64,000 nt of DNA. It comes from an uncultured Phycisphaeraceae bacterium (GTDB lineage: Bacteria > Planctomycetota > Phycisphaerae > Phycisphaerales > UBA1924). The stretch spans positions 92,341-156,340 of the forward strand of contig CALNYS010000002.1 of assembly GCA_942490855.1 (NCBI GenBank), read 5' to 3'. The notes below the pieces were generated by a model. The model was not told where the DNA came from, searched no databases, and worked only from the letters and a program-made list of their open reading frames with translations. The position numbers were made by a program, and so were the translations under genes. Below, piece after piece: positions 12,383 through 61,504 of the stretch. The stretch's first letter is position 1; every line of letters starts with the position of its first letter.

Positions 12383-12386
12383 ACGC

Positions 12387-12752
12387 ATGAAGATCCAGAT
12401 CAAACGCATCTATGAAGACCCGGCGCGGGGGGATGGTTTCCGGGCGTTGGTGGACCGGCTGTGGCCGCGGGGCGTGTCGAAGGACACAGCGGAGCTCGAC
12501 GCGTGGGCGAAGGACGTCGCGCCGTCATCGGAGCTGCGGAAGTCGTGCCCGCGCGACCCGGAGCACTTCCCGGAGTTCCGGAAGCTGTACCTGAAGGAGA
12601 TCAGTGCGAACGGCGATGCGATCGACGCGCTGCTGGCGGAGGTGCGCAAGAGCCGGAAGACCACGCTGACGCTGCTGTACGCGTCGCGGGAGGCGGAGCT
12701 GAATCACGCGGTGGTTTTGAAGGAGGGGATTGAGCGGCGTGTGGGGCGCTAA
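12387..12752 (+). CDS. DUF488 family protein
   Basis: The ATG at 12387 gives MKIQIKRIYEDPARGDGFRALVDRLWPRGVSKDTAELDAWAKDVAPSSELRK.., the characteristic DUF488 N-terminus. The upstream part of ORF 12306.. is only a translation of the REP element. Confidence 0.8.
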   Translation: MKIQIKRIYEDPARGDGFRALVDRLWPRGVSKDTAELDAWAKDVAPSSELRKSCPRDPEHFPEFRKLYLKEISANGDAIDALLAEVRKSRKTTLTLLYASREAELNHAVVLKEGIERRVGR

Positions 12753-14291: not shown

Positions 14292-14312
14292 GGCGTCGTT
14301 CTTCCCTGTTCT

Positions 14313-15409: not shown

Positions 15410-16170
15410 TGGTTGAGCGTGCGGTCGGCGGGGCCGTCGTACTCGTGGGCGCCGGGGATGACGCGGCGCATGGGCTTCATGCGTTCGCGTTCTTCGGTGG
15501 CGTGGGCGACGAGGCCGGGGACGCGGGCGATCATGAAGAGGCCGTTCATGACGGAGGGGTCGAAGCCGAGGTCGGCGAGGATGGCGCCGATCGCGCCGTC
15601 GACGTTGATGGGCAGGGCCTTGCCGCTGGCGGCGAATGCGGATTCGACGGCGCGGGCGGCGGCGACGTGGGGGCCGGTCGCGCCGGCTTCCTCGGCGAGC
15701 TCGAACAAGCGCGCCGTGCGCGGGTCGGCGGTGTGGATGCGGTGCCCGAAGCCGCTCATGCGTTCGCCGCGGGTTTTCATGTCGGCGAGCTCGGCGTTGG
15801 CGGCCTCGCTGAGGTCGCCGCCGCGGGCGATGATCGCGCCGAGCTGGCGGGCGCACTTCTCGATGGCGCCGCCGTGGAAGTTGTTGATGGAGAGGATGCC
15901 GGCGCTGACGGCCTGGGAGAGCGAGGCGCCGGTGGAGGCCACGGTGCGGGCGGAGAGGACGCTGGGGGGCGTGGCGCCGTGGTCGATGCTGGAGACGACG
16001 ATGGCGTCCATCAGCTTGCCGACAGGTTCGCTGGGCATTTCACCGCGGAGGATGAGGTAGACGGCGGCGCCGAAGGAGACGCGTCCCATGAGGTCGGCGA
16101 TGTCGTAGCCGCGGACGCGGACCTCGTTGGGTCGGATGTTGGTGATGGCGGTGGGCCAGGTGTCGGGCAT
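15406..16170 (-). CDS. Short citrate-synthase-fold protein, citryl-CoA lyase-like
   Basis: 254 aa and lacks the large N-terminal citrate synthase domain. It contains the citrate synthase family signature MSGFGHRIHTADPR and later the catalytic-region motif ARVPGLVAH. Confidence 0.75.
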   Translation of the reverse strand: MPDTWPTAITNIRPNEVRVRGYDIADLMGRVSFGAAVYLILRGEMPSEPVGKLMDAIVVSSIDHGATPPSVLSARTVASTGASLSQAVSAGILSINNFHGGAIEKCARQLGAIIARGGDLSEAANAELADMKTRGERMSGFGHRIHTADPRTARLFELAEEAGATGPHVAAARAVESAFAASGKALPINVDGAIGAILADLGFDPSVMNGLFMIARVPGLVAHATEERERMKPMRRVIPGAHEYDGPADRTLNQ

Positions 16171-16242
16171 GGGTGTGCTCTGTCGTGTGTCAGCGGGGGA
16201 AACGCGGCGCTAGAAATACGCTTGAAAATCAGAGGAATACGG

Positions 16243-16284
16243 AGCCCTCACCCCGGCCCTCTCCCCGGGGGAGAGGGGGCGGAT
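16243..16284. repeat. REP-like palindromic intergenic element, copy 3
   Basis: AGCCCTCACCCCGGCCCTCTCCCCGGGGGAGAGGGGGCGGAT, nearly identical to copies 1 and 2. It lies in the 116-nt gap between the CoA-ligase alpha gene and the lyase-like gene. Confidence 0.8.
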
Positions 16285-16286
16285 TC

Positions 16287-17204
16287 TTAGGCCTTGGCTC
16301 CGATGGTTTCGAGGACGGCGGCGGGGAGGTCGCCGAAGGAATCGACGACGGTTGCGCCGGCTTTCGTGAGCGCTTCGACCTTGCCGGCGTGGGTTCCGGT
16401 GTTGCCCTCGATGATCGCGCCGGCGTGGCTGAAGCGGGTGCCTTCTTTGGCGACCTTGCCGCCGATGTAGGCGACGACGGGCTTGGTGACGCGCCCGGCC
16501 TGCATCAGCTCGGCGAGGTCTTCTTCCTGGGAGCCGCCGATCTCGCCGAAGATCGTGATGACTTCGGTGTCGGGGTCGTCTTGGAATCGCAGGGCGATGT
16601 CGGGGATGCGCAGCCCGAGGACGGAGTCGCCGCCGACGTGGCAGAGGGTGGAGAGGCCGACGCCCTGCCGGCAGAGGTAGTAGCCGCAGGAGCTGGTCAT
16701 GCCGCCCGAGCGGGAGATGATGCCGACGCTGCCGGGGGTGAACCACTCGCGGGCGCTGGCGGCTTTCCCGCCGATCATGCCCATGACGGCTTTGCCGGGC
16801 GAGAGCACGCCGAGGGTGTTGGGGCCGATGAATTCGGCGCCGTGCGTGTTAGCAGCCTTGGCGATCGCCATGGCGTCCCAGACGGGGACGCGGTCGGGGA
16901 CGAGGAGCAGGAGCTTGACGCCGGCCTCGATGGCTTCGATCGCGGCGTGCTTGATGAGGCGCGCGGGGACGAAGAGGACGGAGATGTCTACGGGCCCGGC
17001 GTGCTCGGCGTTGGAGTGGGCCATCGCCTCGGAGACGTGGTCCCAGACGGGGAGGCCTTCGACCTCCTGCCCGCCCTTGCCAGGGGTGCAGCCGCCGATG
17101 ATGCGGGTGCCGAACTCGCGCATGAGTCGTGTGCGGGCGCGCCCTTCGCGCCCGGTGATGCCCTGGACGATGACGCGTTTGGTTTCGTCGATGAGAATCG
17201 CCAT
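16287..17204 (-). CDS. Succinyl-CoA synthetase alpha-like CoA-ligase subunit (citryl-CoA synthetase small-subunit-like)
   Basis: The ATG at 17204 gives MAILIDETKRVIVQGITGREG.... Motifs present: SRSGGMT and the phosphohistidine loop FSHAGAI. The start overlaps the stop of the upstream gene (TGATG). Confidence 0.85.
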   Translation of the reverse strand: MAILIDETKRVIVQGITGREGRARTRLMREFGTRIIGGCTPGKGGQEVEGLPVWDHVSEAMAHSNAEHAGPVDISVLFVPARLIKHAAIEAIEAGVKLLLLVPDRVPVWDAMAIAKAANTHGAEFIGPNTLGVLSPGKAVMGMIGGKAASAREWFTPGSVGIISRSGGMTSSCGYYLCRQGVGLSTLCHVGGDSVLGLRIPDIALRFQDDPDTEVITIFGEIGGSQEEDLAELMQAGRVTKPVVAYIGGKVAKEGTRFSHAGAIIEGNTGTHAGKVEALTKAGATVVDSFGDLPAAVLETIGAKA

Positions 17205-18763
17205 CAGGCCGCCTCCTCGCTGACGGCGAGCTCGTTCTCGAGCCCGTCGATGGGGATGTCTACGAAGACCGCGGGGACGCCGGCGCGGATGCATTCGACC
17301 TCGAGGGCGATCCAGTCGGAGTCGCGCTTGGTCGCGTCATCGGGGTCGATGCCGAGGGTCAGGCGCTCGTCCTGGACGCGGAGGAGATCGCCGGCGAGTT
17401 TCAGGACGGTTTGGGTTTGCCCGGCGTCGAGGTTGGCGGCGTCGATCCAGACCTCGCCGGTCCAGTCGTCGCCCAGGGCGACGTCGCAGAGCTTCACGCC
17501 GTCGCCGTCGACGAACGCGGGGACGATGCGGTCCGTGGGTTCCCACACGCTGCCGGCGGCGGCGTCAACGAGTTCGGTGAAGCGCTGGCCGATGGCGCGG
17601 GGCGGGTCGTCTTTCTTGTAGCCCTCGACGGGCGCGGGGAGGTCTTTGCAGGCGTCCTGGAGGATCTCGACGGCGCGGTCCTCGCTGTTCCCGCCGAGGC
17701 GGATGAGGGCGGGGACGGAGAGGTGCAGCTCGTTGAAGGCCTTGGCGAGCCCGTAGGCGGACCAGTACTGCTCCTGGCTGGCGACGCCCGAGCCCGAGCC
17801 GAAGTACCCGACGAGGCCGGGCTGGCTGAGGATGATGCGGGCGGCGGCGTAGACCTTCGCAGCGCTGGGGTTGCCCGAGGTGTCGGTGAAGTTGGCGGGG
17901 GTGAACCCGGCTTGTGAGACGGCGTCCATGCTCATCATGGAGCCGCCGCCGCCGGCGCCGTGGAAGCCGATGACCTTTTCGCCCGTCTCGCCGGTGCGCG
18001 GGAGGACGGCGAAGTAGAACGTGCCGCGGTGGTCGCGCTGCTCGAGGTCGTAGGCGATCTCTTCGAGGCGCGTGGGCGGGTGGTCGAGCTCGCGGGCGAT
18101 GCGGATGCCCAGCTCGGGGTGACGGAAGACGGCGTAGTCGTCGATGGTCACGCGGCAGTCGGCGGCGAGGACGCGCCCGTCGGTGGTGGTGACGAGCGGG
18201 TTGACCTCCATCGAGCGGGCTTCGACCTCGCGCGCGGTCGTGGCGATCTGCTGGATCGCTTCGGCGACGGCGGCGCGGAGGGATTCGGCGATGGGCGAGG
18301 ACGCCATGAGGGCCGTGAGCGCCGCGGCGTCGATGCCGGTCTCGCTGTCGACGGGGAGGCGGTGGACGGAGTCGGCGCGGTCTTCGATGCCCGAGCCGCC
18401 GCCGAAGGCGACGAGCATGACGGGGGCGCGCTCGCCGTCGTCGATGGTCTGGCTGACGAAGATCTCTTCGGCGATGTCGATCTTCTCTTCGACGAGGACG
18501 GTCTCGACGGGGAAGGCGCCGACGCTCATCCCGAGCAGGCGCGACGCGTGCTCGCGGGCCTGCTCCGGGGTGTCGGCGAACGCGACGCCGCCGAGCGCGG
18601 CGCGTCCGGTGGTCCAGGCCTGGATCTTGAGAACGACGGGGCCGCCGATCTCGGCAGCCGCGGCGTACGCCATGTCGGCGCTCCCGGCGACGGCGCCTCT
18701 GGGCACCGCCAGCCCGCGCTCGCGGAGGAGCTTCTTGCCCTCGTGTTCGTGCAGTCTCGCCAC
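17204..18763 (-). CDS. ATP-grasp succinyl-CoA synthetase beta-like subunit with a C-terminal extension of about 130 aa (citryl-CoA synthetase large-subunit-like)
   Basis: Proposed GTG start at 18763, preceded by GGAGAGGAGA, giving (M)ARLHEHEGKKLLRERGLAVPRG, which matches the canonical SucC N-terminus (M.LHEYQ.K). The ORF is 519 aa, compared with roughly 390 aa for typical SucC. Confidence 0.8.
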   Translation of the reverse strand: MARLHEHEGKKLLRERGLAVPRGAVAGSADMAYAAAAEIGGPVVLKIQAWTTGRAALGGVAFADTPEQAREHASRLLGMSVGAFPVETVLVEEKIDIAEEIFVSQTIDDGERAPVMLVAFGGGSGIEDRADSVHRLPVDSETGIDAAALTALMASSPIAESLRAAVAEAIQQIATTAREVEARSMEVNPLVTTTDGRVLAADCRVTIDDYAVFRHPELGIRIARELDHPPTRLEEIAYDLEQRDHRGTFYFAVLPRTGETGEKVIGFHGAGGGGSMMSMDAVSQAGFTPANFTDTSGNPSAAKVYAAARIILSQPGLVGYFGSGSGVASQEQYWSAYGLAKAFNELHLSVPALIRLGGNSEDRAVEILQDACKDLPAPVEGYKKDDPPRAIGQRFTELVDAAAGSVWEPTDRIVPAFVDGDGVKLCDVALGDDWTGEVWIDAANLDAGQTQTVLKLAGDLLRVQDERLTLGIDPDDATKRDSDWIALEVECIRAGVPAVFVDIPIDGLENELAVSEEAA

Positions 18764-18835
18764 GCCGGTCTCCTCTCCAGCGGGCGCTGGCCCGCGGATC
18801 GGCGATGGTAGTGCCCCCCTATTGGCCCGCAAGAC

Positions 18836-19687
18836 TCAGGACGCGCCGGCTTCGTGTTTCTCTGCGGTCCCGGCCCATTCGCCGGAACACACGACGGCCG
18901 TGGGGCCGGTCAGTCGGACGCGTCCGGCGGCGTCGTCCCACTCGGCCTCGAGTGTGCCGCCGGGCATGCGGACGGAGGCGAAGCGGTCGAGGCGCCCGGT
19001 GAGGACGCCCGCGACGACCACGGCGCAGGCGCCGGTGCCGCAGGCGAGGGTCATCCCCGCCCCGCGTTCCCAGGTGCGGACGGTCGCGGAGTCGCGCGCC
19101 GTGATCCGCGTCACGTGGAGGTTCATCCCCTCGGGGAAGGCTCGGTGGTTCTCGACGCGGGGGCCGACGACGCCGAGCTCGACCCCCGCGGGGTCCTCCT
19201 CGATCATCGCGACCATGTGGGGGTTGCCCATCGAGACGAAGACGGCGGGGAGCCCGGCGACCTGGTGCTCGAGCCCGAGCGTCCCCGTCTCGTCGAGCTC
19301 TGCCGCGAGGACGGGGACCTCCCCGAGCGCGACGACCGGCTCGCCCATGTCGAGACGGACGACGCCGCGCCCGAGGCGTTCGGCTTCGAGGGTGCGCCCG
19401 CCCACGTTGATGCGGAGTTGGTCGTCGCTCCAGCCGAGGGCGGCGGCGCGTTCGGCGACGCAGCGGGCGCCGTTGCCGCAGACGCCGCCGTCGCGTCCGT
19501 CGGCGTTGTAGATGGTCATGGAGACCTGGGCCCCGTGCTCGCTTGTGCGGGAGATGGCGATGACGCCGTCGGCGCCGACGCCGGTGCGCCGGTCGCACAG
19601 CGCGCGCACGATCGCCCCGCTCAGCTCGACGGGTTCGTCGAAGAGCAGGTAGTCGTTCCCGCAGCCGTGCATCTTGGTGAAGCGCAC
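18836..19687 (-). CDS. dapF: Diaminopimelate epimerase
   Basis: (M)RFTKMHGCGNDYLLFD, the catalytic-Cys motif GNGARC, and the second motif ACGTGACA. Confidence 0.92.
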   Translation of the reverse strand: MRFTKMHGCGNDYLLFDEPVELSGAIVRALCDRRTGVGADGVIAISRTSEHGAQVSMTIYNADGRDGGVCGNGARCVAERAAALGWSDDQLRINVGGRTLEAERLGRGVVRLDMGEPVVALGEVPVLAAELDETGTLGLEHQVAGLPAVFVSMGNPHMVAMIEEDPAGVELGVVGPRVENHRAFPEGMNLHVTRITARDSATVRTWERGAGMTLACGTGACAVVVAGVLTGRLDRFASVRMPGGTLEAEWDDAAGRVRLTGPTAVVCSGEWAGTAEKHEAGAS

Positions 19688-19708
19688 GGCGGGATCGTAC
19701 CGGATCGC

Positions 19709-21493: not shown

Positions 21494-23224
21494 TTACCCC
21501 GTCCACGCCGCGAGGAGGATGGCGAGGTCAAAGGAATCGACGACGCCGTCCGCGTTGAGGTCGGCGCCACCGGCGCCGCCCCACGCATCGAGGAGGACGG
21601 CAAGGTCAGCAATGTTGACGCACCCGCTGGCGTCGAGATCCTGCGGGACCGTCTGCCCGAGTGTGGGCGAGCCGAAGACCACGTACGTTTCGCCGGCGTT
21701 CGTATTGCCGTTCGGGTCGGCGAAGGGCGCCCCGATGAGGAGGTCATCGACGCCGTCACCGTTCACGTCCCCCGCCGAGGAAACGGAGCGGCCGCTCAGA
21801 TCAAAGGTATCGACGCCGTTGAGGACGAAGCCATCGGCGCCGCTGAGCCCCGAGAGCTCGACGACACCGGAGGACCCGACGCCCGCGCCCCCAAAGACCA
21901 CGTACGTTTCGCCGGCGTTCGTGTTCGAGTCGACGGCGAGTATCCCGATGAGGAGGTCATCGACTCCGTCCGCGTTCACGTCCCCCGCCGAGGAAACGGA
22001 GCGGCCGCTCCGATCATCGGCATCGACGCCGTGGAGGACGAAACCATCGGCGCCGTTCAACCCTGAGAGCTCGACGACGCCGGAGGACCCGACGCCCGCG
22101 CCCCCGAAGACCACGTACGTTTCGCCGGCGCGATTGTTGCCGTTCGGGTCGGCGTTGTGCGCCCCGATGAGGAGGTCATCGACTCCGTCCGCGTTCACGT
22201 CCCCCGCCGAGGAGACGGAAACGCCGCTCTGATCACCGGCATCGACGCCGTTGAGGACGAAGCCGTCGGCGCCGCTGAGCCCCGAGAGCTCGACGACACC
22301 GGAGGACCCGACGCCCGCGCCCCCGAAGACCACGTACGTGTCGCCGGCGCCAGTGTTGCCGTTTGGGTCGGCAGAGTACGCCCCGATGAGGAGGTCATCG
22401 ACGCCGTCACCGTTCACGTCCCCCGCCAAGGAGACGGATAGACCGCTGAAATCACCGGCATCAACGCCGTGAAGAACGAAGCCGTCGGCGCCGCTGAGCC
22501 CCGAGAGCTCGACGACACCGGAGGACCCGACGCCCGCGCCCCCGAAGACCACGTACGTTTCGCCGGCGCGACTGGTGCCGTTCAGGTCGGCGTTGTGCGC
22601 CCCGATGAGGAGGTCATCGACTCCGTCCGCGTTCACGTCCCCCGCCGAGGAAACGGAGCGGCCGCTGAAATCCGAGAAATTAACGCCGTGAAGAACAAAG
22701 CCGTCGGCGCCGTTCAAGCCCGAGAGCTCGACGACACCGGAGGACCCGACGCCCGCGCCGCCGAAGACCACGTACGTTTCGCCGCCCGGGTCGGCGCCGA
22801 ACGCCCCGACGAGGAGGTCATCGACTCCGTCCGCGTTCACGTCCCCCGCCGAGGAGACGGAAGCGCCGCTCTGATCACCGGCATCGACGCCGCTAAGGAC
22901 GAAGCCGTCGGCGCCGCTGAGCCCCGAGAGCTCGACGACGCCGGAGGACCCGACGCCCACGCCCCCGAAGACCACGTACGTTTCGCCGGCGCGACTGTTG
23001 CCGTTCGGGTCGGCGCGATATGCCCCGATGAGGAGGTCATCGAAGCCGTCACCGTTCACGTCCCCCGCCGAGGAGACGGAGCGGCCGCTCCGATCATCGG
23101 CATCCACGCCGTTGATGGTGAAGCCGGTGAGGGCTTGGGTACGGTTCATGCAGGCGAGATCGAGGGCCTGCGCGGCGCCTGCGAGGGTGGCGAGGAGGAC
23201 GGCGGCGGGGAAGTGGGGCTTCAT
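21494..23224 (-). CDS. Secreted seven-repeat FG-GAP propeller protein with near-identical internal repeats and C-terminal double dockerin-like module
   Basis: Signal peptide MKPHFPAAVLLATLAGAAQA. Seven units of the type GETYVVFGGAGVGSSGVVELSGL(S/N)GADGFVL.GVD..D.SG.SVSSAGDVN(A/G)DGVDDLLIGA. The C-terminus is ADLAVLLDAWGGAGGADLNADGVVDSFDLAILLAAWTG. Confidence 0.88.
   Translation of the reverse strand: MKPHFPAAVLLATLAGAAQALDLACMNRTQALTGFTINGVDADDRSGRSVSSAGDVNGDGFDDLLIGAYRADPNGNSRAGETYVVFGGVGVGSSGVVELSGLSGADGFVLSGVDAGDQSGASVSSAGDVNADGVDDLLVGAFGADPGGETYVVFGGAGVGSSGVVELSGLNGADGFVLHGVNFSDFSGRSVSSAGDVNADGVDDLLIGAHNADLNGTSRAGETYVVFGGAGVGSSGVVELSGLSGADGFVLHGVDAGDFSGLSVSLAGDVNGDGVDDLLIGAYSADPNGNTGAGDTYVVFGGAGVGSSGVVELSGLSGADGFVLNGVDAGDQSGVSVSSAGDVNADGVDDLLIGAHNADPNGNNRAGETYVVFGGAGVGSSGVVELSGLNGADGFVLHGVDADDRSGRSVSSAGDVNADGVDDLLIGILAVDSNTNAGETYVVFGGAGVGSSGVVELSGLSGADGFVLNGVDTFDLSGRSVSSAGDVNGDGVDDLLIGAPFADPNGNTNAGETYVVFGSPTLGQTVPQDLDASGCVNIADLAVLLDAWGGAGGADLNADGVVDSFDLAILLAAWTG
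21675..23000. repeat. In-frame tandem DNA repeats of about 208-220 nt inside the FG-GAP gene
   Basis: The string GA(A/C)GACCACGTACGT(T/G)TCGCC recurs at about 21675, 21894, 22107, 22325, 22545, 22753 and 22967, with long flanking identity. Confidence 0.8.
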
Positions 23225-40978: not shown

Positions 40979-43435
<2,457 letters not shown>

Positions 43436-49529: not shown

Positions 49530-50000
49530 ATGTCAGAGATCATCATCCCGGGGGGCGGCGGCGGGGACAGCGCCGACGACGCACCCAAGATTCACGTTGA
49601 CAGCGACTGGAAGGCCGAGGCCCAGGCCGAGAGGGACCGCCTCGACGCCGAGGCCGAGGAGAAAACCGCGGCCTCGGGCGGCGGCGCGGGCGGCATGCCC
49701 CCCGCCAACTTCCAGACCCTCTGGAGCGAGCTCGCCTCGCAGGCCTACGTCTTCCTCGGCGCGATCCCCGACCCCAAAACGGGGCAGGCGATCGTCGCGC
49801 CCGAGTACGCGAAGCACTACATCGATCTCCTCGGCGTCCTCAGCGAGAAGACCGAGGGCAACCTGAGCGCCGAGGAATCCGACGAGTTCCAGAAGGTCCT
49901 CGTCGAACTCCGACAGGTCTTCGTCCGCGTCGCGGGCTATGTCGCGTCCGAGATGGCCAAGCAGGACGCCGCGGGCGAACAGCCGGCGCCGGACGCCTGA
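49530..50000 (+). CDS. DUF1844 domain protein
   Basis: FQTLWSELASQAYVFLGAIPDPKTGQAIVAPEYAKHYIDLLGVLSEKTEGNLSAEESDEFQKVLVELRQVF matches the DUF1844 pattern as I recall it. Confidence 0.7.
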   Translation: MSEIIIPGGGGGDSADDAPKIHVDSDWKAEAQAERDRLDAEAEEKTAASGGGAGGMPPANFQTLWSELASQAYVFLGAIPDPKTGQAIVAPEYAKHYIDLLGVLSEKTEGNLSAEESDEFQKVLVELRQVFVRVAGYVASEMAKQDAAGEQPAPDA

Positions 50001-50073
50001 CGAACCCGGCCTGATCGGGCCGATAGACCTCTATCTTCCCGCCCATCGACTCACTCGTGAAGGGGACCGACCC

Positions 50074-50874
50074 GTGAGCGATTCCTCGTCCTTCCTGGAC
50101 AAGCACCATTTCCTGCTCCGCCGACTGCACTCGCTCGCCGGCGTGATTCCCATCGGCGTCTTCCTCATCATGCACCTGACGACCAACTCGTCGGTGGTGT
50201 GGGCCGAGGCCTTCGGGCGCGACGGCGCCGAGACGTTCCAGCACGAAGTCAACTTCATCCACTCCATGCCCGGGCTGATCCTGATCGAGGTCTTCGGGCT
50301 GTGGCTGCCGATCTTCTTCCACTCGATCTTCGGCTTCTACTACGCCTTCTCCGGGCGCTCCAACGCCGCGTCGTACCCCTACGGGGGCAGCTGGCGCTAC
50401 AGCCTCCAGCGCTGGACCGGCTACGTCGGCTTCCTCTTCATCCTGTTCCACGTCGCGACGCTGCGCTGGGGGTGGGATTTCCTCCCCTTCTCGTCGGGCT
50501 TTGACGCGCACTCGGCGGCGTCCACCACGGCGCTGTCGCTCCGCGGCGGTCCCGACGCGAGCGTGCTCGGCGGGATCTTCAACATGGTCCTGTACCTCGG
50601 CGGCGTCACCGCGCTCGTCTACCACTTCGCCAACGGGCTCTGGACCTGGGCGATCACCTGGGGCATCACCGTCTCACCGCAGGCGCAGAAGCGCTGGGGC
50701 TACGTGTGCGCCGCGGTCGGCTTCGGGCTCCTCGGCGCCGGCTGGAGCGCGTACTTCGGGTTCGTCGCGCTCGACATCGAAGCCGCGCAGCAGACCGAGC
50801 TCCGCATGCGGGCGCCCGGGCACGCCGAGGCTGAACCTCTCTCCAGCAGCCCCCTTCTCAGCGAGGAGCACTGA
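50074..50874 (+). CDS. sdhC: Succinate dehydrogenase/fumarate reductase cytochrome b558 subunit (type B, five-helix)
   Basis: The GTG at 50074 (after GAAGGGGA) gives (M)SDSSSFLDKHHFLLRRLHSLAGVIPIGVFLIMHLTTN, which closely resembles the Bacillus-type SdhC N-terminus. The upstream part of ORF 49939.. overlaps the DUF1844 gene. Confidence 0.85.
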   Translation: MSDSSSFLDKHHFLLRRLHSLAGVIPIGVFLIMHLTTNSSVVWAEAFGRDGAETFQHEVNFIHSMPGLILIEVFGLWLPIFFHSIFGFYYAFSGRSNAASYPYGGSWRYSLQRWTGYVGFLFILFHVATLRWGWDFLPFSSGFDAHSAASTTALSLRGGPDASVLGGIFNMVLYLGGVTALVYHFANGLWTWAITWGITVSPQAQKRWGYVCAAVGFGLLGAGWSAYFGFVALDIEAAQQTELRMRAPGHAEAEPLSSSPLLSEEH

Positions 50875-50877
50875 CCT

Positions 50878-52833
50878 ATGCCGCTGCCCCCCAACCACGA
50901 CAAGCGTGTGATCGTCGTCGGCGGCGGACTCGCGGGCCTCGCCGCCTGCGTCCGCCTCGCCGAGCAGGGCGTCCCCGTCGACCTCTTCTCCATGGTCCCC
51001 GTCAAGCGCTCGCACTCCGTATGCGCGCAGGGCGGGATCAACGCCTGCAACGACATCGCCCGTCAGCAGGGCTACTCCGAGTGGGAGCACATGGACGAGA
51101 CGCTCTACGGCGGGGACTACCTCGCCGACCAGCCTCCCGTCTACGAGATGACCCACTGGGCGCCGCGGATCATCAACCTCCTCGACCGCATGGGCGTGCC
51201 CTTCAACCGCACCATGGAAGGGCAGCGCGACCTGCGCCTCTTCGGCGGTTCGCTCTTTAAGCGCACGCACTTCTCGGGCGCGACGACCGGGCAGCAGCTC
51301 ATGTACGCCCTCGACGAGCAGGTGCGCCGCGCCGAGGCCGAGGGCAAGGTCACCAAGTACGAGTTCTGGGAGTTCCTCTCCCCGATCCTCGAGGACGGGA
51401 CGTGCGTGGGCATCGTCGCCCAGGACATGCGCACGATGCAGATCCGCGCGTTCCGCGGCGACGCCGTCGTGATGGCGACCGGCGGCTGCGGGCTCGTGTT
51501 CGGCAAGTCCACCAACTCCGTTGTCTGCACCGGCGCCGCGGCCGCGCGCTGCTACCGCCACGGCGCGTGGTACGGCAACCCGGAGTTCATCCAGGTCCAC
51601 CCGACCGCCATCCCCGGCGCCGACAAGTGCCGCCTGATGAGCGAGTCCGCCCGCGGCGAGGGCGGGCGCGTGTGGGTCCCCCGCAAGAAGGGCGACACCC
51701 GCGACCCGCGTCAGATCCCCGCCGAGGAACGCTACTACCTCCTCGAGGAGCGCTACCCCAAGTACGGCAACCTCGTGCCGCGCGACATCGCGTCGCGCGA
51801 GATCTTCGACGTGTGCGTCAACGACCACATGGGCGTTGGCGGCGAGAACCAGGTCTACCTCGACCTGACGCACAAATCCAAGGAAGAGCTCGACCGCAAG
51901 CTGGGCGGCATCCTTGAGATCTACGAGAAGTTCGCCGGCGAGGACCCCCGCGTCCTCCCCATGAAGATCTTCCCCGCGGTCCACTACTCCATGGGCGGGC
52001 TGTGGACGACGTTCACCGCCGAGGACCGCCCCGCCGACCCGATGATGGACAAGGCCGCCATCGCGAAGGGCCACGACACCGTCCGCGGGATGGAGTACGG
52101 GGCGCCCAACACGATGAGCACCAACATCCCCGGGCTGTACGCGCTGGGCGAGGTGAACTTCGCGTTCCACGGCGCGACGCGCCTGGGCGCCAACGCGCTC
52201 CTCTCGTGCATCTTCGACGGGCTCTTCGCGGGCATGGGCATCACGAACTACGTCGCCGACGAGGCCCCCGCCGCGACCGAGGTCGCCCAGGGCGTGTACG
52301 ACTCCGCGGTCGAACGCGAGGAGAAGATCGTTGACGACCTCGTCGGTGAGAACCGCGCCCCGGCCGCCAACGACGACAACGCCTACAAAATCGCCAAGGA
52401 GCTGGGCGTCGAGATGACCGCGGCTTCCACCGTGGTCAAGACCGGCCCGCGCCTCCGCGAGTGCCTCACGAAGATCGACGAGTACAAGGAACGGTTCGAG
52501 AAGGTCCGCCTCGCCGACAGCGAGATGTGGACCAACCAGAACCTCAGCTTCAGCCGGAGCGTCCGCGACATGCTCGTGATCGCCGAGGCGATCGCCAAGG
52601 GCGGCGAGCTCCGCGAGGAGTCCCGCGGTTCTCACTACCGGACCGATTTCCTCGAGCGCAACGACGAGAAGTTCATGAAGACCACCGTCGCCGCGTTCAA
52701 CCCCGAGACGGGACGGCCCGACATCAGCTACCGAGAGGTCGTCACCGGCCTCGTCCAGCCCCGTGCCCGCACCTACGGCAAGACCGACGCCCCCGTCGAT
52801 GAGAAGAAGGAGGCCGCCGCGAGCGCGTCGTAA
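50878..52833 (+). CDS. sdhA: Succinate dehydrogenase/fumarate reductase flavoprotein subunit
   Basis: VIVVGGGLAGLAA, the covalent-FAD site RSHSVCAQGGI, HPTAIPG, ARGEGGR, HYSMGGL, SRGSHYR. Confidence 0.93.
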   Translation: MPLPPNHDKRVIVVGGGLAGLAACVRLAEQGVPVDLFSMVPVKRSHSVCAQGGINACNDIARQQGYSEWEHMDETLYGGDYLADQPPVYEMTHWAPRIINLLDRMGVPFNRTMEGQRDLRLFGGSLFKRTHFSGATTGQQLMYALDEQVRRAEAEGKVTKYEFWEFLSPILEDGTCVGIVAQDMRTMQIRAFRGDAVVMATGGCGLVFGKSTNSVVCTGAAAARCYRHGAWYGNPEFIQVHPTAIPGADKCRLMSESARGEGGRVWVPRKKGDTRDPRQIPAEERYYLLEERYPKYGNLVPRDIASREIFDVCVNDHMGVGGENQVYLDLTHKSKEELDRKLGGILEIYEKFAGEDPRVLPMKIFPAVHYSMGGLWTTFTAEDRPADPMMDKAAIAKGHDTVRGMEYGAPNTMSTNIPGLYALGEVNFAFHGATRLGANALLSCIFDGLFAGMGITNYVADEAPAATEVAQGVYDSAVEREEKIVDDLVGENRAPAANDDNAYKIAKELGVEMTAASTVVKTGPRLRECLTKIDEYKERFEKVRLADSEMWTNQNLSFSRSVRDMLVIAEAIAKGGELREESRGSHYRTDFLERNDEKFMKTTVAAFNPETGRPDISYREVVTGLVQPRARTYGKTDAPVDEKKEAAASAS

Positions 52834-52854
52834 GACGCCCGCACGGATTTCATC

Positions 52855-53682
52855 ATGGTTGCAGAGAACTCCAAAGCGTCCCTCACCCCCGGCGCCAAGC
52901 GCACCGTCCGCCTCAAGATCAAACGCTGCAAGGGCCCCGGCAAGCCCTCCTACTGGGAGACGTTCAACGTCCCCGTCAGCGCGGGCGAGGGCGCCAACAT
53001 CATCAGCGCCCTCCAGCACGTCGCCGCCAACCCCGTCACCGTCGATGGCAACGCGACCACCCCCGTCGTCTGGGACTCCGGCTGCCTCGAAGAGGTCTGC
53101 GGCGCCTGCACCATGGTCGTCAACGGCAAGGTCCGCCAGTCCTGCTCGGCGCTCCTGGACACCATCGCTCCCACCGACGGCGACACCGTCACACTCGAGC
53201 CGATGAGCAAGTTCCCCGTCAACCGCGACCTCTTCGTCGACCGCCAGCGCATGTTCGACACGCTCAAGCGCCTCAAGGCGTGGGTCCCCATCGACGGCCT
53301 CTACGAGCTCGGCAAGGGCCCCACCGAGTCGCCCACCCAGCAGGAAGAACGCTACGTCTACTCCACCTGCATGACCTGCGGCTGCTGCCTCGAGGCCTGC
53401 CCCCAGTTCCAGAAGGAAGACGACCCCGCGAAGTGGGCCGAGTCCTTCGTCGGCGCCAACGCCATGGGACAGGCCCAGCTCTTCAACATGCACGAGACCG
53501 GCGCCCGTCTCAAGGGCGACCGCCTCGACGAGATGTCACGCAAGGGCGGCGTCTCCGACTGCGGCAACGCCCAGAACTGCGTCAAGGTCTGCCCCAAGGA
53601 GATCCCGCTCTCCCAGGCCATCGCCTCCCTCGGGCGCGCCGTCACGATCCACGGCGTCAAGAGCTTCTTCACGGGCAAGTAA
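52855..53682 (+). CDS. sdhB: Succinate dehydrogenase/fumarate reductase iron-sulfur subunit
   Basis: Three Cys clusters: CLEEVCGACTMVVNG, CMTCGCCLEACP, CGNAQNCVKVCP. Confidence 0.92.
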   Translation: MVAENSKASLTPGAKRTVRLKIKRCKGPGKPSYWETFNVPVSAGEGANIISALQHVAANPVTVDGNATTPVVWDSGCLEEVCGACTMVVNGKVRQSCSALLDTIAPTDGDTVTLEPMSKFPVNRDLFVDRQRMFDTLKRLKAWVPIDGLYELGKGPTESPTQQEERYVYSTCMTCGCCLEACPQFQKEDDPAKWAESFVGANAMGQAQLFNMHETGARLKGDRLDEMSRKGGVSDCGNAQNCVKVCPKEIPLSQAIASLGRAVTIHGVKSFFTGK

Positions 53683-56271: not shown

Positions 56272-56634
56272 TCAGGCGCAGACAGGAGGGGCGCGGGGCG
56301 GGCCGGCAGACCAGGCCCAGGCGCGGACGGGCGTCTCGGCGCCCGGTCGTTCGATCCGCACAAACGCGTGCGCATCGATGAACGTGAACCCGCCGGGCGA
56401 CGTGAAGGCGCGGTCGGCTGACTGGAGCGTCAGACAGACCGGGCACTCATCCTCGTCGGGCGATGGCTCGGGGGACTCGTCAGAATCATGCGATGTCGCC
56501 GCCCGCTCGCACCCGTGCGCGTCCGCGGTGTCACCCGGGGCGTGCGCGAGGACCCGGTGCAGCGTCTGCCCGCCACCGCTGACGGCGAGGGCAAAGGCGA
56601 CTATCCCGAGCATGTTGAGAAGGCGAGTCGTCAC
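56272..56634 (-). CDS. Small membrane-anchored acidic protein with a CPVC motif
   Basis: GTG start (an alternative ATG lies at 56613). One TM helix (LLNMLGIVAFALAV), an acidic linker (SHDSDESPEPSPDEDE), then CPVCL. Confidence 0.45.
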   Translation of the reverse strand: MTTRLLNMLGIVAFALAVSGGGQTLHRVLAHAPGDTADAHGCERAATSHDSDESPEPSPDEDECPVCLTLQSADRAFTSPGGFTFIDAHAFVRIERPGAETPVRAWAWSAGPPRAPPVCA

Positions 56635-56680
56635 AGCTTCATTGTTATACGCCCCGGGCGCCGTTCAAGTGGCGAGATTG

Positions 56681-56713
56681 GCAAAAACAAAAAAACCCGG
56701 CCGGGCCGGGTTT
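56681..56713 (-). terminator. Rho-independent terminator downstream of the GFN-repeat gene
   Basis: Perfect 8-bp stem AACCCGGC/GCCGGGTT with a 3-nt loop, followed on the minus strand by TTTTTTTGTTTTT. Confidence 0.85.
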
Positions 56714-56754
56714 CTCGGACACTAGGGAAGGAGAGATTCAGTCAGACGCGAGGC

Positions 56755-57522
56755 TCAGGCGGCTTCGGTGTTGAACTTGGGGGCGCCGGTGAAGCCGATG
56801 CCGCCCTGCTGCTGCCCGTTGGAGTTCGAGAAGCCGTTGGGCGTGGGGCCCTGAAAGCCGTTGGGGGCGCCGTTGAACCCGGCGAAGTTCGGGTTGAACC
56901 CGAAGAAGCCCTGGTTGTTGATCGGGGAGCCGAAGGACGGGGCGATGCCCTGACCGCCGCCGAAACCGTTGGCGATGCCGGGGTTCATGCCGGGGTTGAA
57001 ACCGCCGTTGAAGCCAGCGTTGAAACCGGAGTTGAAGCCGGGGTTGAAGCCGCTGCTAAAACCGGGGTTCCAGCCGAAGCCGTTCCAGCTCGTGGGGCCG
57101 CCGAAGCCGCCCGTGCCGCCGCCGAAACCGCCGTTGAAACCGCTCTGAAAACCGGGGTGGAAGCCACCGTTGAAGCCGGGGTTGAACCCGCCGTTGAAGC
57201 CAGCGTTGAAACCGGAGTTGAAGCCGGGGTTGAAGCCGCCGAACGAGGGCGAGGCGTTCCAGGAGTTCTGGGGGCCGAAGCCGCCGAAGGGCTGACCGAA
57301 GCCGGCGCCGAAGGGCGTGTTGAACGCGGGGGCGTTCCAGTTCGCGGGGCCGTTCCAGTTGGCGGGGCCGTTGTTCCACGAGTTGGTCGGGCCGTTGCCC
57401 CACGCGCCGTTCCACGGGGTGTTCCAGCCGGTGGAGCCGTTGAAGCCGCCGTTGAAACCGGGGTTCCAGCCGAACGTGTTGAAGAAGGGCTGGAAGGGGG
57501 CGGTGGCGAAGGGAGTGGTCAT
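56755..57522 (-). CDS. Gly/Asn/Phe-rich low-complexity repeat protein (GFN/FG-like repeats)
   Basis: ATG at 57522 preceded by AGGAG. 255 aa made almost entirely of GFNxGFN, WN and FG units. Third-codon positions are almost all G/C in this frame and not in the antisense frame. No signal peptide is evident. Confidence 0.75.
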   Translation of the reverse strand: MTTPFATAPFQPFFNTFGWNPGFNGGFNGSTGWNTPWNGAWGNGPTNSWNNGPANWNGPANWNAPAFNTPFGAGFGQPFGGFGPQNSWNASPSFGGFNPGFNSGFNAGFNGGFNPGFNGGFHPGFQSGFNGGFGGGTGGFGGPTSWNGFGWNPGFSSGFNPGFNSGFNAGFNGGFNPGMNPGIANGFGGGQGIAPSFGSPINNQGFFGFNPNFAGFNGAPNGFQGPTPNGFSNSNGQQQGGIGFTGAPKFNTEAA

Positions 57523-57822
57523 GTGTGTCGCTCCTGAGGAGGGTGTGGTTCGGCCGCGGTCTCTGCTCCGCGTCATCGGCCCGTCGGCGCGGCGGGCCGC
57601 GATCCCTGAGGCATAAACGCGTTACCGGACGCCCCGCGGCGGGACGCGTCCGCGTGAGCTATCGGCGACTCCGGGGAGCGACTTCGCGGGCGGCGCGTTT
57701 TTTTCGTTCCGGGCAGCGGGGTTTCTTCACACCCGCTTCAAAACACCCGCGCCCGAAGCTCACGGTTTTTGCGTGCGGCGCCCGCTCCTGGCGCGGTAGC
57801 CTCGCAGACGAGCGAGGAGAGA

Positions 57823-57862
57823 GGCCTCGCCCGGACACCGTCTGGGCGAGGTCGTTTTTATT
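57823..57862 (+). terminator. Strong hairpin plus T-run oriented for the plus strand (orphan terminator, possibly also used by the convergent EamA gene)
   Basis: GGCCTCGCCCGGACACCGTCTGGGCGAGGTC followed by GTTTTTATT. The 8-bp core CCTCGCCC/GGGCGAGG is extended by inner pairs. No credible plus-strand CDS lies upstream. Confidence 0.6.
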
Positions 57863-58358: not shown

Positions 58359-60893
58359 CTACTGCGGCGCGCCGCGCAGGAGGTCCCCCGCCCGGAGCGT
58401 CAGCGGGTGCTCGAGGCCCAGCTGCTCGCTCAGCGCCCGCGCGGCCGCGGCGAGGTCGCCCGGCGTCACCAGCTCCCGCCCGGTGTCGCGTTCGATCTCG
58501 CCCAGGATGACCGCGAGGCGTGCGCGCGGGACGGCCCCCGGCGGGAAGAGCGCGTGGCACGTCTGGCGGATCTCGCTCCCGAGCGCGGCCGCGGCCGCCG
58601 TCCGCCCGGCCCGGCGCATGGCGTCGACCGTGTCGATCACCGCATCGACGACCGCCGGGCGGTCGGAGCCGTCGGCCTCGGCCAGCCCGGTGACGCGCCG
58701 GGTGAAGACGTCCACCGCCTCGCTGTCACGCCCTTCGCGCTGGAGCGCGCGCGCCAGCGCGAGGCGCAGCTCGGCGACGGCGGGGTCGGAGGGCGTCAGG
58801 ACGGCCGACGCGCTCGACTCGAGCTCGGTCAGGATCGCCGACCCCGAACCGAGGGCGAGCTCGAGCTCGAGCTGGGCGAGGAGCGTCTCGGGGTGGCGGG
58901 GCCCGAGGCTGCTGCGGTTGATCTCCACGAGCGTGCGCATGCGGGTCTGCGCCGCGGGGAGGTTGCCCGTGAGGCGCGTCGCGGCGCCGAGCAGGCGCGA
59001 CAGGCGCGGGGCAGAGGCCAGCGATCCTGACGCGCGCGGGAGCGCGGCGCGCAGGGCTTCGATCGCTTCGTCGACGCGTCCGTTCTCGATCGCGATCTCC
59101 GCCTCGGCGATCCGCGCCTCGAGCCACTCGGGCGAGTCGGGATCGACCACGCGGCGCGCCCGGGCGTAGAGCCCCAGCGCGTCGCCCGGGCGACCGAGGC
59201 GGTGGGCCAGCTGCGCCCGCACGATCAGAGCCGACCCGACGCGCGACGGATCACCCCCGCCCGGGAGCGCGTTCTCCAGGCGCCCGGCGAGCGCCGTCGC
59301 CTCGGCGAGGTTCCCGCGCTCGGCGAGCGTCAGCGAGAGGACGCCCACGACGTCGAGCGTCTCCCCGGCATCGGGCCCGAGCAGGCTCTCGCGCGCGTCG
59401 AGCGCCGCGCGCAGCTGCGCCTCGGCCTCGGCGTAGCGTCCCAGGCGGTGCAGGGCCTGCCCGATCGCCAGGCGCAGCGACGCCTCGACCAGCGGGTCCT
59501 CGTCGAGTTCTTCATCGAGCCGGGCGACGGCCTCGTCGAGCATCTTCGTGACGCTGGCGTCTCCACCGGTCTCGCTGACGCCGATCATGTCGCGCAGGAG
59601 CGTGACGACGCGCTCGGCGCGCTGCGCGGAATGCTGGGCCTGCTCGCGTGCGAGCGCCTCGGCGCTCTGGGCGCGCCCCGCGGCGACCGCGAACCACACG
59701 CTGACGAGCGTCGCGATGATCAGCGCCGCCGCGACCGCGCCCACCCCCGCGACCATCCCGGCGCGACGCCTCGCGAAGAGACGGAACTGGCGCCACAGCC
59801 CGGGGCGCGACGCCTCCACCGGCTCGCGGCGCAGGTACCGCGCCACGTCGGCCGCGAGCGCCTCGGCCGACTGATAGCGGCGCACCCGCTCGGGCTCGGT
59901 CGCCTTGGAGATGATCGACTCGAGATCGCCCCGCGCCGCCGGGTTGCACGCGCCCGCGCGCCCCACGCGCCGTCGGCGCAGCAGATCCGCGGCTTCCACC
60001 AGCGATAACCCGTCGAGCTCGTGCGGCGGGCGGTCGCACACCAGCTCGTAGAGCACGACGCCGAGCGCGTAGATGTCCGTGCGCACGTCGATGTCGTCGC
60101 CCCCGGGGCGGAGCTGCTCGGGGCTCATGTACTGGAGCGTCCCGACGAGCTGCCCGCCGAGCGTCCCGACCGTCCCGCTCGGGTCGTCCTCGACGGCGCG
60201 GGCGACGCCGAAGTCGATCACCTTCGGCTGCCCGTTCGCGCCGACGAGCAGGTTCGCGGGCTTGAGGTCGCGGTGGATGACGCCCTTCTGGTGCCCGTGG
60301 TGGACGGCGCCGCAGATTTTGATGAAGAGCGCCAGCCGCGCGTCGAGCAGCAGCGCGCTCTCGCGGGCGTAGCGCGTCACAGCGCGGGCCTCCGGGACGA
60401 GCTCCATCGCGAAGTAGGGCGCCGAGAGCGCGCCGTCGGAGTGCGTCCCCGCCTCGTAGATCTGCGCGACCCCGGGGTGGCGCAGCAGCCCGAGCACCTC
60501 GGCCTCGTAGCGGAAGCGGCGCAGCGCTCGCGGCGACATCGCGCCGGCGCGCAGGACCTTCACCGCCACGGCGCGCTTGGGTTCGTCCTGCTCGGCCTCG
60601 TACACCGCGCCCATCGAGCCCGACGCGATCAGGCCCGTGATGGTGAACCGCCCCACACGCTGCCCGACGAGCGCCTCGGCGTCGGGCGTGTCGTCGGGGA
60701 TGCGGTCGATCACCGATTCTTCGAGGAACGTGTCGTCGGGGTCGTGGTGCCCGAGGAGCGATCCGACCTCGGCCGCCACGCCGGGCTCGCGCTGCTCGAG
60801 CGCACCGAGGAACTCCCGCCGAGCCGCGTCGTCCATCCCGAGGGCTTCGGAGAAGGCCTCCTTCACCTGGGCGTGGAAGGCCTCGCCCGTCAC
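58359..60893 (-). CDS. Ser/Thr protein kinase with one TM helix and a large C-terminal TPR-like domain
   Basis: The GTG at 60893 overlaps the sigma factor stop (GTGA). Kinase motifs present: VAVKVL, HRDLKPANLLV, DFGVAR, GTLQYMSPEQ. TM segment MVAGVGAVAAALIIATLVSVWFAV. Repeated helical pairs follow. Confidence 0.88.
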   Translation of the reverse strand: MTGEAFHAQVKEAFSEALGMDDAARREFLGALEQREPGVAAEVGSLLGHHDPDDTFLEESVIDRIPDDTPDAEALVGQRVGRFTITGLIASGSMGAVYEAEQDEPKRAVAVKVLRAGAMSPRALRRFRYEAEVLGLLRHPGVAQIYEAGTHSDGALSAPYFAMELVPEARAVTRYARESALLLDARLALFIKICGAVHHGHQKGVIHRDLKPANLLVGANGQPKVIDFGVARAVEDDPSGTVGTLGGQLVGTLQYMSPEQLRPGGDDIDVRTDIYALGVVLYELVCDRPPHELDGLSLVEAADLLRRRRVGRAGACNPAARGDLESIISKATEPERVRRYQSAEALAADVARYLRREPVEASRPGLWRQFRLFARRRAGMVAGVGAVAAALIIATLVSVWFAVAAGRAQSAEALAREQAQHSAQRAERVVTLLRDMIGVSETGGDASVTKMLDEAVARLDEELDEDPLVEASLRLAIGQALHRLGRYAEAEAQLRAALDARESLLGPDAGETLDVVGVLSLTLAERGNLAEATALAGRLENALPGGGDPSRVGSALIVRAQLAHRLGRPGDALGLYARARRVVDPDSPEWLEARIAEAEIAIENGRVDEAIEALRAALPRASGSLASAPRLSRLLGAATRLTGNLPAAQTRMRTLVEINRSSLGPRHPETLLAQLELELALGSGSAILTELESSASAVLTPSDPAVAELRLALARALQREGRDSEAVDVFTRRVTGLAEADGSDRPAVVDAVIDTVDAMRRAGRTAAAAALGSEIRQTCHALFPPGAVPRARLAVILGEIERDTGRELVTPGDLAAAARALSEQLGLEHPLTLRAGDLLRGAPQ

Positions 60894-61504
60894 TCCTGAG
60901 GATCCTCCGGGGCGATCCCGCGCAGCAGCTCGCGTCGGAGCCACGCCTTGGCCATCGCCCAGTCGGACTCGACGGTGCGCTGCGAGACGCCCAGCACGTG
61001 GGCGACCTCGTTCGCGCCCAGCCCGCCGAAGAAGCGCAGCTCCACGACGCGGGCCTGTCGTTCGTCGAACGCCTCGAGCTTCTGGAGCGCGTCGTCGAGC
61101 GCGATCATCTCGACGTGATCGACGCCCTCGACCAGCGGGCGGTCGAGCGTGACCCGCGCCCACGACCCGCCGCGTTTGGCGGCTTTCGTCGCCCGGGCGT
61201 GGTCGATGAGCACGCGCCGGATCATGCTGGCGCCGACCGCGATGAAGTGAGCGCGGCTCTTCCAGTCGGTCTTGCGCTGATCGACGAGACGGAGGAACGC
61301 CTCGTTGACGACGGCCGTCGGCTCGAGGGTGTGGTTGGCGCGTTCCTGTCGCAGGTAGACGGAAGCGAGGGCCCGGAGCTCGTCGTAGACGAGGGGCATG
61401 AGGTCTGCCGCGGCGCCGTGCTCGCCCTCGGAGAGAGCGTTGAGGCGGTCGGTGGCGTCGGCTGTCTGGTCGGGAGGCCTAGTCATCGCTTCAGATGTAC
61501 GCAT
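60890..61504 (-). CDS. ECF-type sigma-70 family factor (kinase-associated ECF type)
   Basis: LMPLVYDELRALASVYLRQERANHTLEPTAVVNEAFLRL, IRRVLIDHARATKAAKRGG, VVELRFFGGLGANEVAHVLGVSQRTVESDWAMAKAWL. Confidence 0.88.
   Translation of the reverse strand: MRTSEAMTRPPDQTADATDRLNALSEGEHGAAADLMPLVYDELRALASVYLRQERANHTLEPTAVVNEAFLRLVDQRKTDWKSRAHFIAVGASMIRRVLIDHARATKAAKRGGSWARVTLDRPLVEGVDHVEMIALDDALQKLEAFDERQARVVELRFFGGLGANEVAHVLGVSQRTVESDWAMAKAWLRRELLRGIAPEDPQE

Follow-up and report, generated by a model that had tools for sequence, protein, structure and literature searches.

Introduction

Low-complexity domains that cohere through aromatic residues and glycine are known almost entirely from eukaryotes, as parts of proteins that also have folded or membrane-anchoring domains. 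In FG nucleoporins the hydrophilic spacers are about 10–20 residues long. The canonical FG motif types are GLFG and FxFG (PMC6449795). In the YG domain of PEX13, aromatic residues are parted by uncharged Gly/Ser-rich linkers of about four residues; purified YG domains form gels, a property that depends on the aromatic residues, and exchange of Tyr for Phe leads to a modest import defect only (PMC9795577). In crystals, a steric zipper was reported for the TDP-43 segment 396-GFNGGFG-402 (PMC11346406). In the glycine repeats (GxxxG) of FliH, Tyr and Phe dominate the first variable position (x1), the third (x3) is mostly occupied by Glu, Gln or Ala and seldom by Asn, and tracts that contain Pro were judged non-helical (PMC2674601). 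Here we describe a bacterial gene, referred to as the GFN gene, whose product recalls several of these systems. It lies in a stretch of 64,000 nucleotides (nt) from an uncultured Phycisphaeraceae bacterium (contig CALNYS010000002.1), and the whole of this stretch is called the window.

Comparison of two related alleles makes us highly confident that the GFN gene is a real protein-coding gene. We favour, at roughly even confidence, the reading that its product of 255 amino acids (aa) is a disordered “sticker-spacer” polypeptide that would self-associate, most likely in the cytoplasm. What sets this protein apart is that low-complexity sequence makes up all of it, together with its bacterial origin and the purifying selection on its gene.

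Selection on the GFN frame

The GFN gene has 255 codons and a stop and encodes a product of 25.8 kDa (Table 1). A 6519-nt JGI metagenome contig, L006, is fully syntenic with the window at about 90% DNA identity. As in the window, it encodes in order a Ser/Thr kinase with tetratricopeptide (TPR) repeats, an EamA transporter, the GFN protein, a DUF2946-like protein, a prepilin-type N-methyl protein and a PEP-CTERM-like protein. The GFN ortholog (L006 3128..3814) has 228 aa and is 90% identical in amino acid sequence over the aligned codons. The two genes are separated by 15, 17 and 36 substitutions at the first, second and third sense codon positions, respectively. For this one pair, the ratio of non-synonymous to synonymous differences per site (pN/pS) in the GFN frame is 0.26 and the corresponding ratio of substitution rates (dN/dS) is 0.23 (Fisher p = 6e-9), and pN/pS of the neighbouring genes lies between 0.11 and 0.36. 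Within the first 45 codons there are eight synonymous and no non-synonymous changes. The C-terminal part differs at only 2 of 66 aligned residues, but this conservation is uninformative, because synonymous changes there are also few (3). Three indels of 1, 5 and 21 codons distinguish the two genes, all of them in frame, and the indels in the flanking intergenic sequence are of 1 nt. On this pair of alleles, the comparison shows that the GFN frame is under purifying selection.

A further copy was found on L001 (ENA ERZ650156 NODE_163812), a chimeric contig of 1141 nt and low coverage. Positions 333..982 match L006 at 99.2% and derive from the same population, while both ends are unrelated sequence of lower GC content. 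This contig is the source of a 61-aa protein fragment, P0020, which stops after 61 aa because the contig is chimeric.

The initial annotation of the window, made from the sequence alone, had proposed coding in the GFN frame and had named conservation of an overlapping antisense open reading frame (ORF) of 349 aa as the finding that would speak against it. The opposite was observed, with a pN/pS of 1.67 in the antisense ORF versus 0.26 in the GFN frame; all four frames other than the GFN frame and the one that shares its third positions range from 1.45 to 1.73. Either this antisense ORF or no frame at all would be functional if the locus were not a GFN protein gene. High-GC DNA does yield long chance ORFs, and the antisense frame is free of stops in both relatives. 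Its G+C content at third codon positions (GC3) is, however, only 0.49, and a 1-nt indel downstream of the GFN gene in L006 unhooks its start from the frame, which ends after 154 aa. We infer that the antisense ORF stays stop-free only since sense codons almost never end in A. As the comparison with L006 contradicts it, such a non-coding explanation is extremely improbable. One argument of the initial annotation did not hold: high GC3 is not limited to one strand, as the antisense frame that shares third positions with the GFN frame has a GC3 of 0.93. That frame has a pN/pS of 0.53 and contains four stops in the window and two in L006.

Signals around the gene and codon usage

Both expression signals named in the initial annotation, an AGGAG site and a clean terminator, are present. 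The GGAG core and its spacer to the ATG are kept in L006 and L001, and the hairpin with its T-run, recovered by a terminator scan, is 100% identical in L006. A longer, 273-aa product starting at an in-frame ATG at 57576 was considered and rejected: a 1-nt deletion puts this ATG out of frame in L006, and the start is therefore placed at 57522. Given the 335-nt spacer upstream and its own terminator downstream, the GFN gene is probably a monocistronic unit.

A promoter scan of the 335-nt upstream region found no sigma-70-like promoter. A GGAAC-type candidate for the −35 element of an extracytoplasmic function (ECF) sigma factor was rejected, as it is not conserved in L006. The leader matches no Rfam family, and a regulatory RNA was rejected as unsupported, given the lack of such a match, a fold z-score of −0.83 and covariation limited to two distinct sequences. 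In the same leader, the 8-nt sequence GUCGCUCC (57675..57682, −) is a perfect complement of GGAGCGAC (57527..57534, −) in the region of the ribosome-binding site (RBS), about 140 nt downstream, and is kept in L006. The predicted pairing of GUCGCUCC with GGAGCGAC could sequester the RBS; the fold of the whole leader is no better than that of shuffled sequences.

The host genome has a GC content of 69%, and the codon choice of the GFN gene fits the genome GC3. The gene has a strong bias to codons that end in a pyrimidine. GGC and GGT account for 94% of its Gly codons and GGG for 6%, compared to 33% GGG in 18 reference genes of the window; the same comparison gives 82% versus 53% for CCC and 72% versus 41% for GCC. 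High expression of the gene, or homogenisation among its repeats, could account for this bias.

Table 1 Features of the GFN gene and its product in the window. Protein parts are given in residues of the 255-aa product.
Feature	Coordinates	Strand	Remarks
Coding sequence, 255-aa Gly/Asn/Phe/Pro/Trp protein	56755..57522	−	Stop codon 56755..56757; GC3 0.92
Shine-Dalgarno-like AGGAG	57531..57535	−	Spacer of 8 nt to the ATG (57522); read from sequence
Intrinsic terminator	56680..56716	−	12-bp GC-rich stem, 3-nt loop, T-run; terminator scan
Upstream intergenic region, 335 nt, presumed promoter and leader	57523..57857	−	85% identical to L006, indels 1-nt only
N-terminal Trp/Asn-rich part, aa 1–93	57244..57522	−	F/W-N-x-P/G units, GFGxPFGGFG
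GFNx array 1, aa 94–135	57118..57243	−	12-nt tandem period; 21-aa block at 57175..57237; GFNGGFG at 57121..57141
G/F-rich linker, aa 136–149			Between GFNx arrays 1 and 2
GFNx array 2, aa 150–189	56956..57075	−	56989..57051 holds copy 2 of the 21-aa block
C-terminal Gly/Asn/Phe/Gln part, aa 190–255	56758..56955	−	Ends KFNTEAA; carries both charged residues
349-aa antisense shadow ORF, judged not a gene	56488..57537	+	GC3 0.49, pN/pS 1.67

Composition and repeat architecture

Translation, composition and motif counts bear out the initial description of a repeat protein dominated by Gly, Asn, Phe, Pro and Trp. The product consists of 26.3% Gly, 16.9% Asn, 16.5% Phe, 11.0% Pro, 7.1% Ala, 5.9% Ser, 5.1% Thr, 3.9% Gln and 3.9% Trp, while the mean contents in 18 ordinary genes of the window are 3.2% for Asn, 3.4% for Phe and 11% for Gly. 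Only 14 amino acid types are used, Leu, Val, Cys, Tyr, Asp and Arg being absent. One Lys and one Glu are the only charged residues (0.8%), and there is a single His. Aromatic residues account for 20.4% of the chain, and Asn and Gln together for 20.8%.

The most frequent short motifs are GF (29 occurrences), GFN (16), FG (12), GFN[PSAG]GFN (10), WN (9), FGG (5) and PSFG (2). The sequence has a period of four residues, with autocorrelations of 0.29–0.40 for G, F and N at lag 4, and the DNA is made of 12-, 24- and 36-nt tandem repeats. Aromatic residues are spaced at a mode of 4 and a mean of 4.8. Twenty-three of the 51 gaps between successive aromatic residues equal 4, where 5.3 are expected and the maximum in 5000 shuffles was 16; the standard deviation of the spacing is 2.4 (shuffles: mean 4.2, minimum 2.56), and adjacent aromatic pairs number 2 versus 10.4 expected. 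The aromatic regularity of the GFN protein thus exceeds chance.

Two arrays of GFNx tetrapeptides form the centre of the protein. The initial annotation had reported a duplicated block; the duplication stands but the longer string quoted does not, as the exact repeat is the 21-aa block GFNPGFNSGFNAGFNGGFNPG at aa 96–116 and aa 158–178, encoded by copies that are identical at 62 of 63 nt. The segment GFNGGFG (aa 128–134) is kept in L006, and GFNGGF occurs five times. Read in a GxxxG register, position x3 is Pro in 9, Gly in 8, Ser in 4 and Ala in 2 of 25 units. The 21-codon gap of L006 falls in array 2, which has about eight units in the window and about three in the ortholog; the difference was either lost in L006 or gained in the window. 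With this gap and two 63-nt copies that differ at one base, the alignment indicates that the number of GFNx repeats is actively changing between relatives.

Sixteen Asn-Gly dipeptides were counted in the GFN protein and 15 in its ortholog. Asn-Gly is the fastest dipeptide to deamidate, and ageing would therefore add negative charge to the otherwise uncharged chain.

Disorder and location

A single-sequence AlphaFold2 model of the GFN protein has a mean per-residue confidence (pLDDT) of 40.3 and a predicted template modelling score (pTM) of 0.15. Short helices at aa 104–131 and 162–172, in parts of the arrays free of Pro, have pLDDT values below 50. As the initial annotation had stated, no signal peptide or transmembrane (TM) helix is apparent: Kyte-Doolittle hydropathy over 19 residues does not exceed 0.45, so that hydrophobic and amphipathic segments are also missing, and the N-terminal end lacks basic character. 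Searches with Pfam found no SH3 domain, and no DnaJ domain at E ≤ 10; the stretch GGFGGGTGGFGG is the only one that resembles the G/F linker of DnaJ/Hsp40. Neither GLFG nor FxFG motifs occur in the protein.

The absence of an apparent export signal bears on the suggestion of the initial annotation that this could be an adhesive or matrix protein, for which no positive support emerged. Such a protein would leave the cell by a non-classical route and form a cohesive or elastic, elastomer-like material outside it. Its composition, rich in Gly, Pro and aromatic residues and arranged in short tandem units, would suit this role, and the downstream neighbours on the same strand are of envelope or secreted type (prepilin-type N-methyl, PEP-CTERM-like and a weak GC-dockerin match). 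The perfectly conserved N-terminal 45 residues could also be an unrecognised targeting signal. However, the N-terminus resembles no Sec, Tat or lipoprotein signal, a hydrophobic segment is missing, signals of the PEP-CTERM, dockerin or RTX type are likewise absent, and the GFN gene, with its own terminator and upstream spacer, is not co-transcribed with the envelope genes. We therefore consider export unlikely.

Distribution and homology searches

In order to find relatives, an exhaustive phmmer search was run over 1.84 billion representative proteins. It returned 351 matches at E ≤ 0.001, of which 150 were listed. Among the matches listed, and in a word-indexed search of 5.8 billion proteins, the fragment P0020 was the only true relative. 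None of the other listed matches has a comparable composition, and none aligns convincingly outside aa 90–190; they match through runs of G-aromatic-x-x tetrapeptides, in GxxxG tracts of the FliH/Yae1 type or in GFNx tails of unrelated secreted proteins. The termini outside the GFNx arrays gave no matches when searched alone, and neither did the GFN protein as a query against GTDB species genomes and viral contigs. The exact sequences of the GFN protein and its L006 ortholog are absent from a collection of 15 billion proteins, where they were never called or were called with another start. In the literature we did not find GFN-type repeats described in bacteria. The homolog search thus turned up only the ortholog in L006 and its fragment, and the rarity in bacteria asserted in the initial annotation is consistent with these results.

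The neighbouring EamA gene was used to look for the same locus in other genomes. L002, a Logan contig of 1253 nt, is identical to the EamA region of the window. The nearest EamA relatives in GTDB are found in a metagenome-assembled genome (MAG) labelled Rubrobacteraceae (L003, 59% identity) and in a Phycisphaerales MAG (L004, 52%). In both, the GFN gene is absent beside EamA and unrelated genes take its position. Judged by these searches, the GFN gene is an orphan confined to one narrow lineage.

This distribution bears on whether the GFN gene is a young, lineage-specific ORF that arose by expansion of a 12-nt repeat and is translated with little or no cellular function. It is known from the window and one related population, it is a mosaic of tandem repeats with a near-identical 63-nt duplication, and neither allele is among the called proteins of the large collection. 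On the other hand, the constraint on its frame is similar to that on neighbouring genes and includes 0 versus 8 changes in the first 45 codons, all indels are in frame, RBS and terminator are both retained, and the aromatic residues follow a non-random pattern. A young gene devoid of function thus appears unlikely as well.

No family in Pfam, NCBIfam, PHROGs, PADLOC or PDB sequences matched the GFN protein at or above threshold. The Pfam family Yae1_N (PF09811) scored 15.7 bits (cut-off 27.5, E = 0.012), below its gathering threshold, and the best FliH model reached 22.4 bits (cut-off 192, E = 6e-5), aligning only aa 154–189 to its GxxxG repeat part. These matches raise the alternative that the GFNx arrays form helices of the GxxxG glycine-zipper type, like those of FliH/YscL and Yae1/Lto1, and that the protein is a helical oligomerisation adaptor. 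The short helices of the AlphaFold2 model, an aromatic x1 as in FliH and about 350 proteins whose G-aromatic-x-x repeats match aa 90–190 are in line with it. The scores lie far below their cut-offs, however, and the helices are of low confidence; x3 is Pro or Gly in 17 of 25 units, which is unlike FliH; the remaining 60% of the protein has no GxxxG register; and a defined helical interface would not easily tolerate the shrinkage of array 2 seen in the ortholog. Taken together, we regard a glycine zipper as quite unlikely.

Nineteen of the proteins that share the tetrapeptide (P0001–P0019; e.g. L007 3001..4098) are of separate interest. They are unrelated, secreted-looking multidomain proteins, with SGNH lipase, Big_3_5, FN3 and phosphoesterase domains, that share a C-terminal tail of about 90 residues. 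The tail consists of two GFNx arrays with a conserved Cys before each (C.DP.GAYNQGFNAGFNSGF... and C..QFNQGFNTGFNPGFNSGFQKGF...) and closes with a basic His/Arg stretch. The only Pfam match on it is a weak one to Yae1_N, and by its sequence it looks like an undescribed C-terminal module.

A proposed self-associating sticker-spacer protein

Under the sticker-spacer reading that we favour, Phe and Trp stickers at about every fourth residue, parted by short spacers of Gly, Asn, Pro and Ser, would form a chain without a folded core. The chain would self-associate via many weak aromatic contacts together with hydrogen bonds of Asn and the backbone, and the outcome would be a cohesive phase, i.e. 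a condensate, a hydrogel or an amyloid-like solid. The two GFNx arrays would supply valence, and in-frame slippage would shift their copy number between close relatives. Because no export signal is apparent, such assembly would most likely be cytoplasmic. The protein may serve as the scaffold of a membrane-less body, as a stress or vitrification protectant, or in a similar role.

Several points weigh against this sticker-spacer reading. With about 11% Pro and 26% Gly, the chain is poorly suited to extended beta-zippers. The density of stickers is far above that of FG domains, and the protein could simply be insoluble. Because Pro and Gly are high and sticker density is very high, the material state, whether liquid, gel or solid, cannot be predicted. 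The neighbourhood gives no hint of function and holds several envelope proteins, the absence of a signal peptide was judged by hydropathy and inspection only, and the selection estimate rests on one pair among two independent alleles (the window and L006/L001).

A more specific form of the sticker-spacer reading would make the protein a free-standing bacterial analogue of FG/YG meshworks, building a membrane-less compartment or a selective phase in a planctomycete-like cell, with a valence tuned by repeat slippage. This we consider very unlikely. Rapid deamidation at its 16 Asn-Gly sites, which would add negative charge over time, might cap the lifetime of such a meshwork.

The initial annotation had gone further in pointing to a phylum with complex endomembranes. 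A related reading would make the GFN protein a bacterial counterpart of FG nucleoporins or of the PEX13 YG domain that forms a selective permeability phase in a pore of a compartmentalised planctomycete. The composition and aromatic spacing, together with the probable phylum, agree with this, and nothing further does. The protein has no anchor, amphipathic helix or TM segment and lacks the canonical FG motifs, its neighbours include no coat-like or pore-related gene, and it belongs to one narrow lineage rather than to the phylum. Terms for FG repeats were not found in the text of the published paper on pore-like structures of Gemmata. The endomembrane link is therefore unsupported, and a pore phase is highly improbable.

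Should the GFN protein assemble into a condensate or gel in vivo, it would represent a natural sticker-spacer polymer in minimal form and a new candidate organiser of bacterial membrane-less structure. It could then be used to ask how valence, Asn/Pro spacer chemistry and variation in repeat number set material properties. If it is instead a young gene without a role, it would show cleanly how a gene can be born from a 12-nt repeat and come under selection. A link to the evolution of the nuclear pore is unsupported and is not a reason to pursue the gene.

Genomic neighbourhood

The genes around the GFN gene encode an EamA transporter, a Ser/Thr kinase, an ECF sigma factor, a pseudopilin-like protein and PEP-CTERM proteins. 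The PF07638-type sigma factor, the prepilin-like N-methyl protein, tails of PEP-CTERM and GC-dockerin-like type, and the Phycisphaerales MAG with one of the two closest EamA relatives point to a host that is probably a planctomycete. The ECF sigma factor gene (PF07638 type; 60890..61504, −) overlaps the predicted start of the gene for the 934-aa Ser/Thr kinase with TPR repeats (58359..61163, −), and these two genes may form an operon with the EamA gene that directly follows. A defence-island context was considered and rejected; the kinase domain matches PADLOC PD-T4-6 models, in what looks like generic kinase similarity.

Just downstream of the GFN gene lies the DUF2946-like gene of 120 aa (56272..56634, −), whose family match is borderline (22.8 bits, cut-off 23.7). 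Only 2 of its 120 residues differ from L006, and its synonymous divergence (dS 0.02) is more than ten-fold below that of the flanking genes. The pattern points to a recent recombination tract across this gene that extends into the 3' end of the GFN gene.

Elsewhere in the window, genes for isocitrate dehydrogenase (4668..5906), aconitase (10225..12213) and an ATP-grasp_2/citrate-synthase-N-like protein (17204..18832) are close together at 4668..19700 (−), and succinate dehydrogenase genes are found at 49939..53682. The window may thus hold a tricarboxylic acid (TCA) cycle cluster of the ATP-citrate-lyase or succinyl-CoA-synthetase type. Three large FG-GAP repeat (beta-propeller) proteins are encoded at 5932..7638, 21494..23224 and 40979..43435 (−). 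The “FG” in their name refers to an integrin-type repeat and is unrelated to the GFN protein.

Comparison with known systems

The GxxxG families FliH/YscL and Yae1/Lto1 (deca-GX3) are the only ones that score at all against the GFN protein, with which they share a Gly at every fourth residue and an aromatic x1. Unlike them, the GFN protein has Pro or Gly at x3 and Asn at x2, lacks the flanking FliH and Yae1 regions and has an unstable repeat number. The tails of P0001–P0019 are built from the same tetrapeptide (GFNA, GFNS, GFNP) in runs of 6–10. In contrast to the GFN protein, these arrays are attached to folded domains, contain two Cys and few Pro and end in a basic segment; they match it at aa 90–190 only and lack its Trp/Asn-rich and C-terminal parts.

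Cohesive FG domains such as those of Nup98/Nup100 are matched more closely in physico-chemical terms, as the GFN protein is likewise uncharged, rich in Asn/Gln and Gly and disordered, with 12 FG and 29 GF dipeptides. It differs in a several-fold higher sticker density, in the lack of GLFG and FxFG motifs and of an anchoring domain, and in having no transport-receptor or pore context. Of the likeness to FG nucleoporins, prion-like sequences and hydrogels proposed in the initial annotation, the physico-chemical analogy is supported and the nucleoporin link is not, given the missing motifs and a spacing of 4. The FG-nucleoporin likeness is analogy, not homology.

The YG domain of PEX13 is similar in the modal aromatic spacing of 4 and in the virtual absence of charge, the linkers of the GFN protein being made of Gly, Asn, Pro and Ser. 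The stickers of the GFN protein are Phe and Trp, with no Tyr, and where YG spacers are enriched in Ser, its own are enriched in Asn and Pro. Unlike PEX13, the GFN protein is all low-complexity and bacterial and has no amphipathic helix, TM segment or SH3 domain, and no homology was detected between the two.

In its content of Asn and Gln, Gly and charged residues, and in its verbatim GFNGGFG, the GFN protein has a prion-like composition. Gly and Asn make up 27% and 13.5% of the low-complexity domain of TDP-43, compared to 26% and 17% here, and Phe and Trp serve as aromatic residues in both. The TDP-43 domain is, however, only 8.5% aromatic and rich in Ser, Met and Gln, includes a segment that is helical and is joined to RNA-binding domains; the two proteins are not homologous (BLASTP E = 2.3). 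Because each comparison fails on anchor domain, motif type, family threshold or homology, the GFN protein belongs to none of these groups, but it resembles cohesive FG, YG and prion-like domains.

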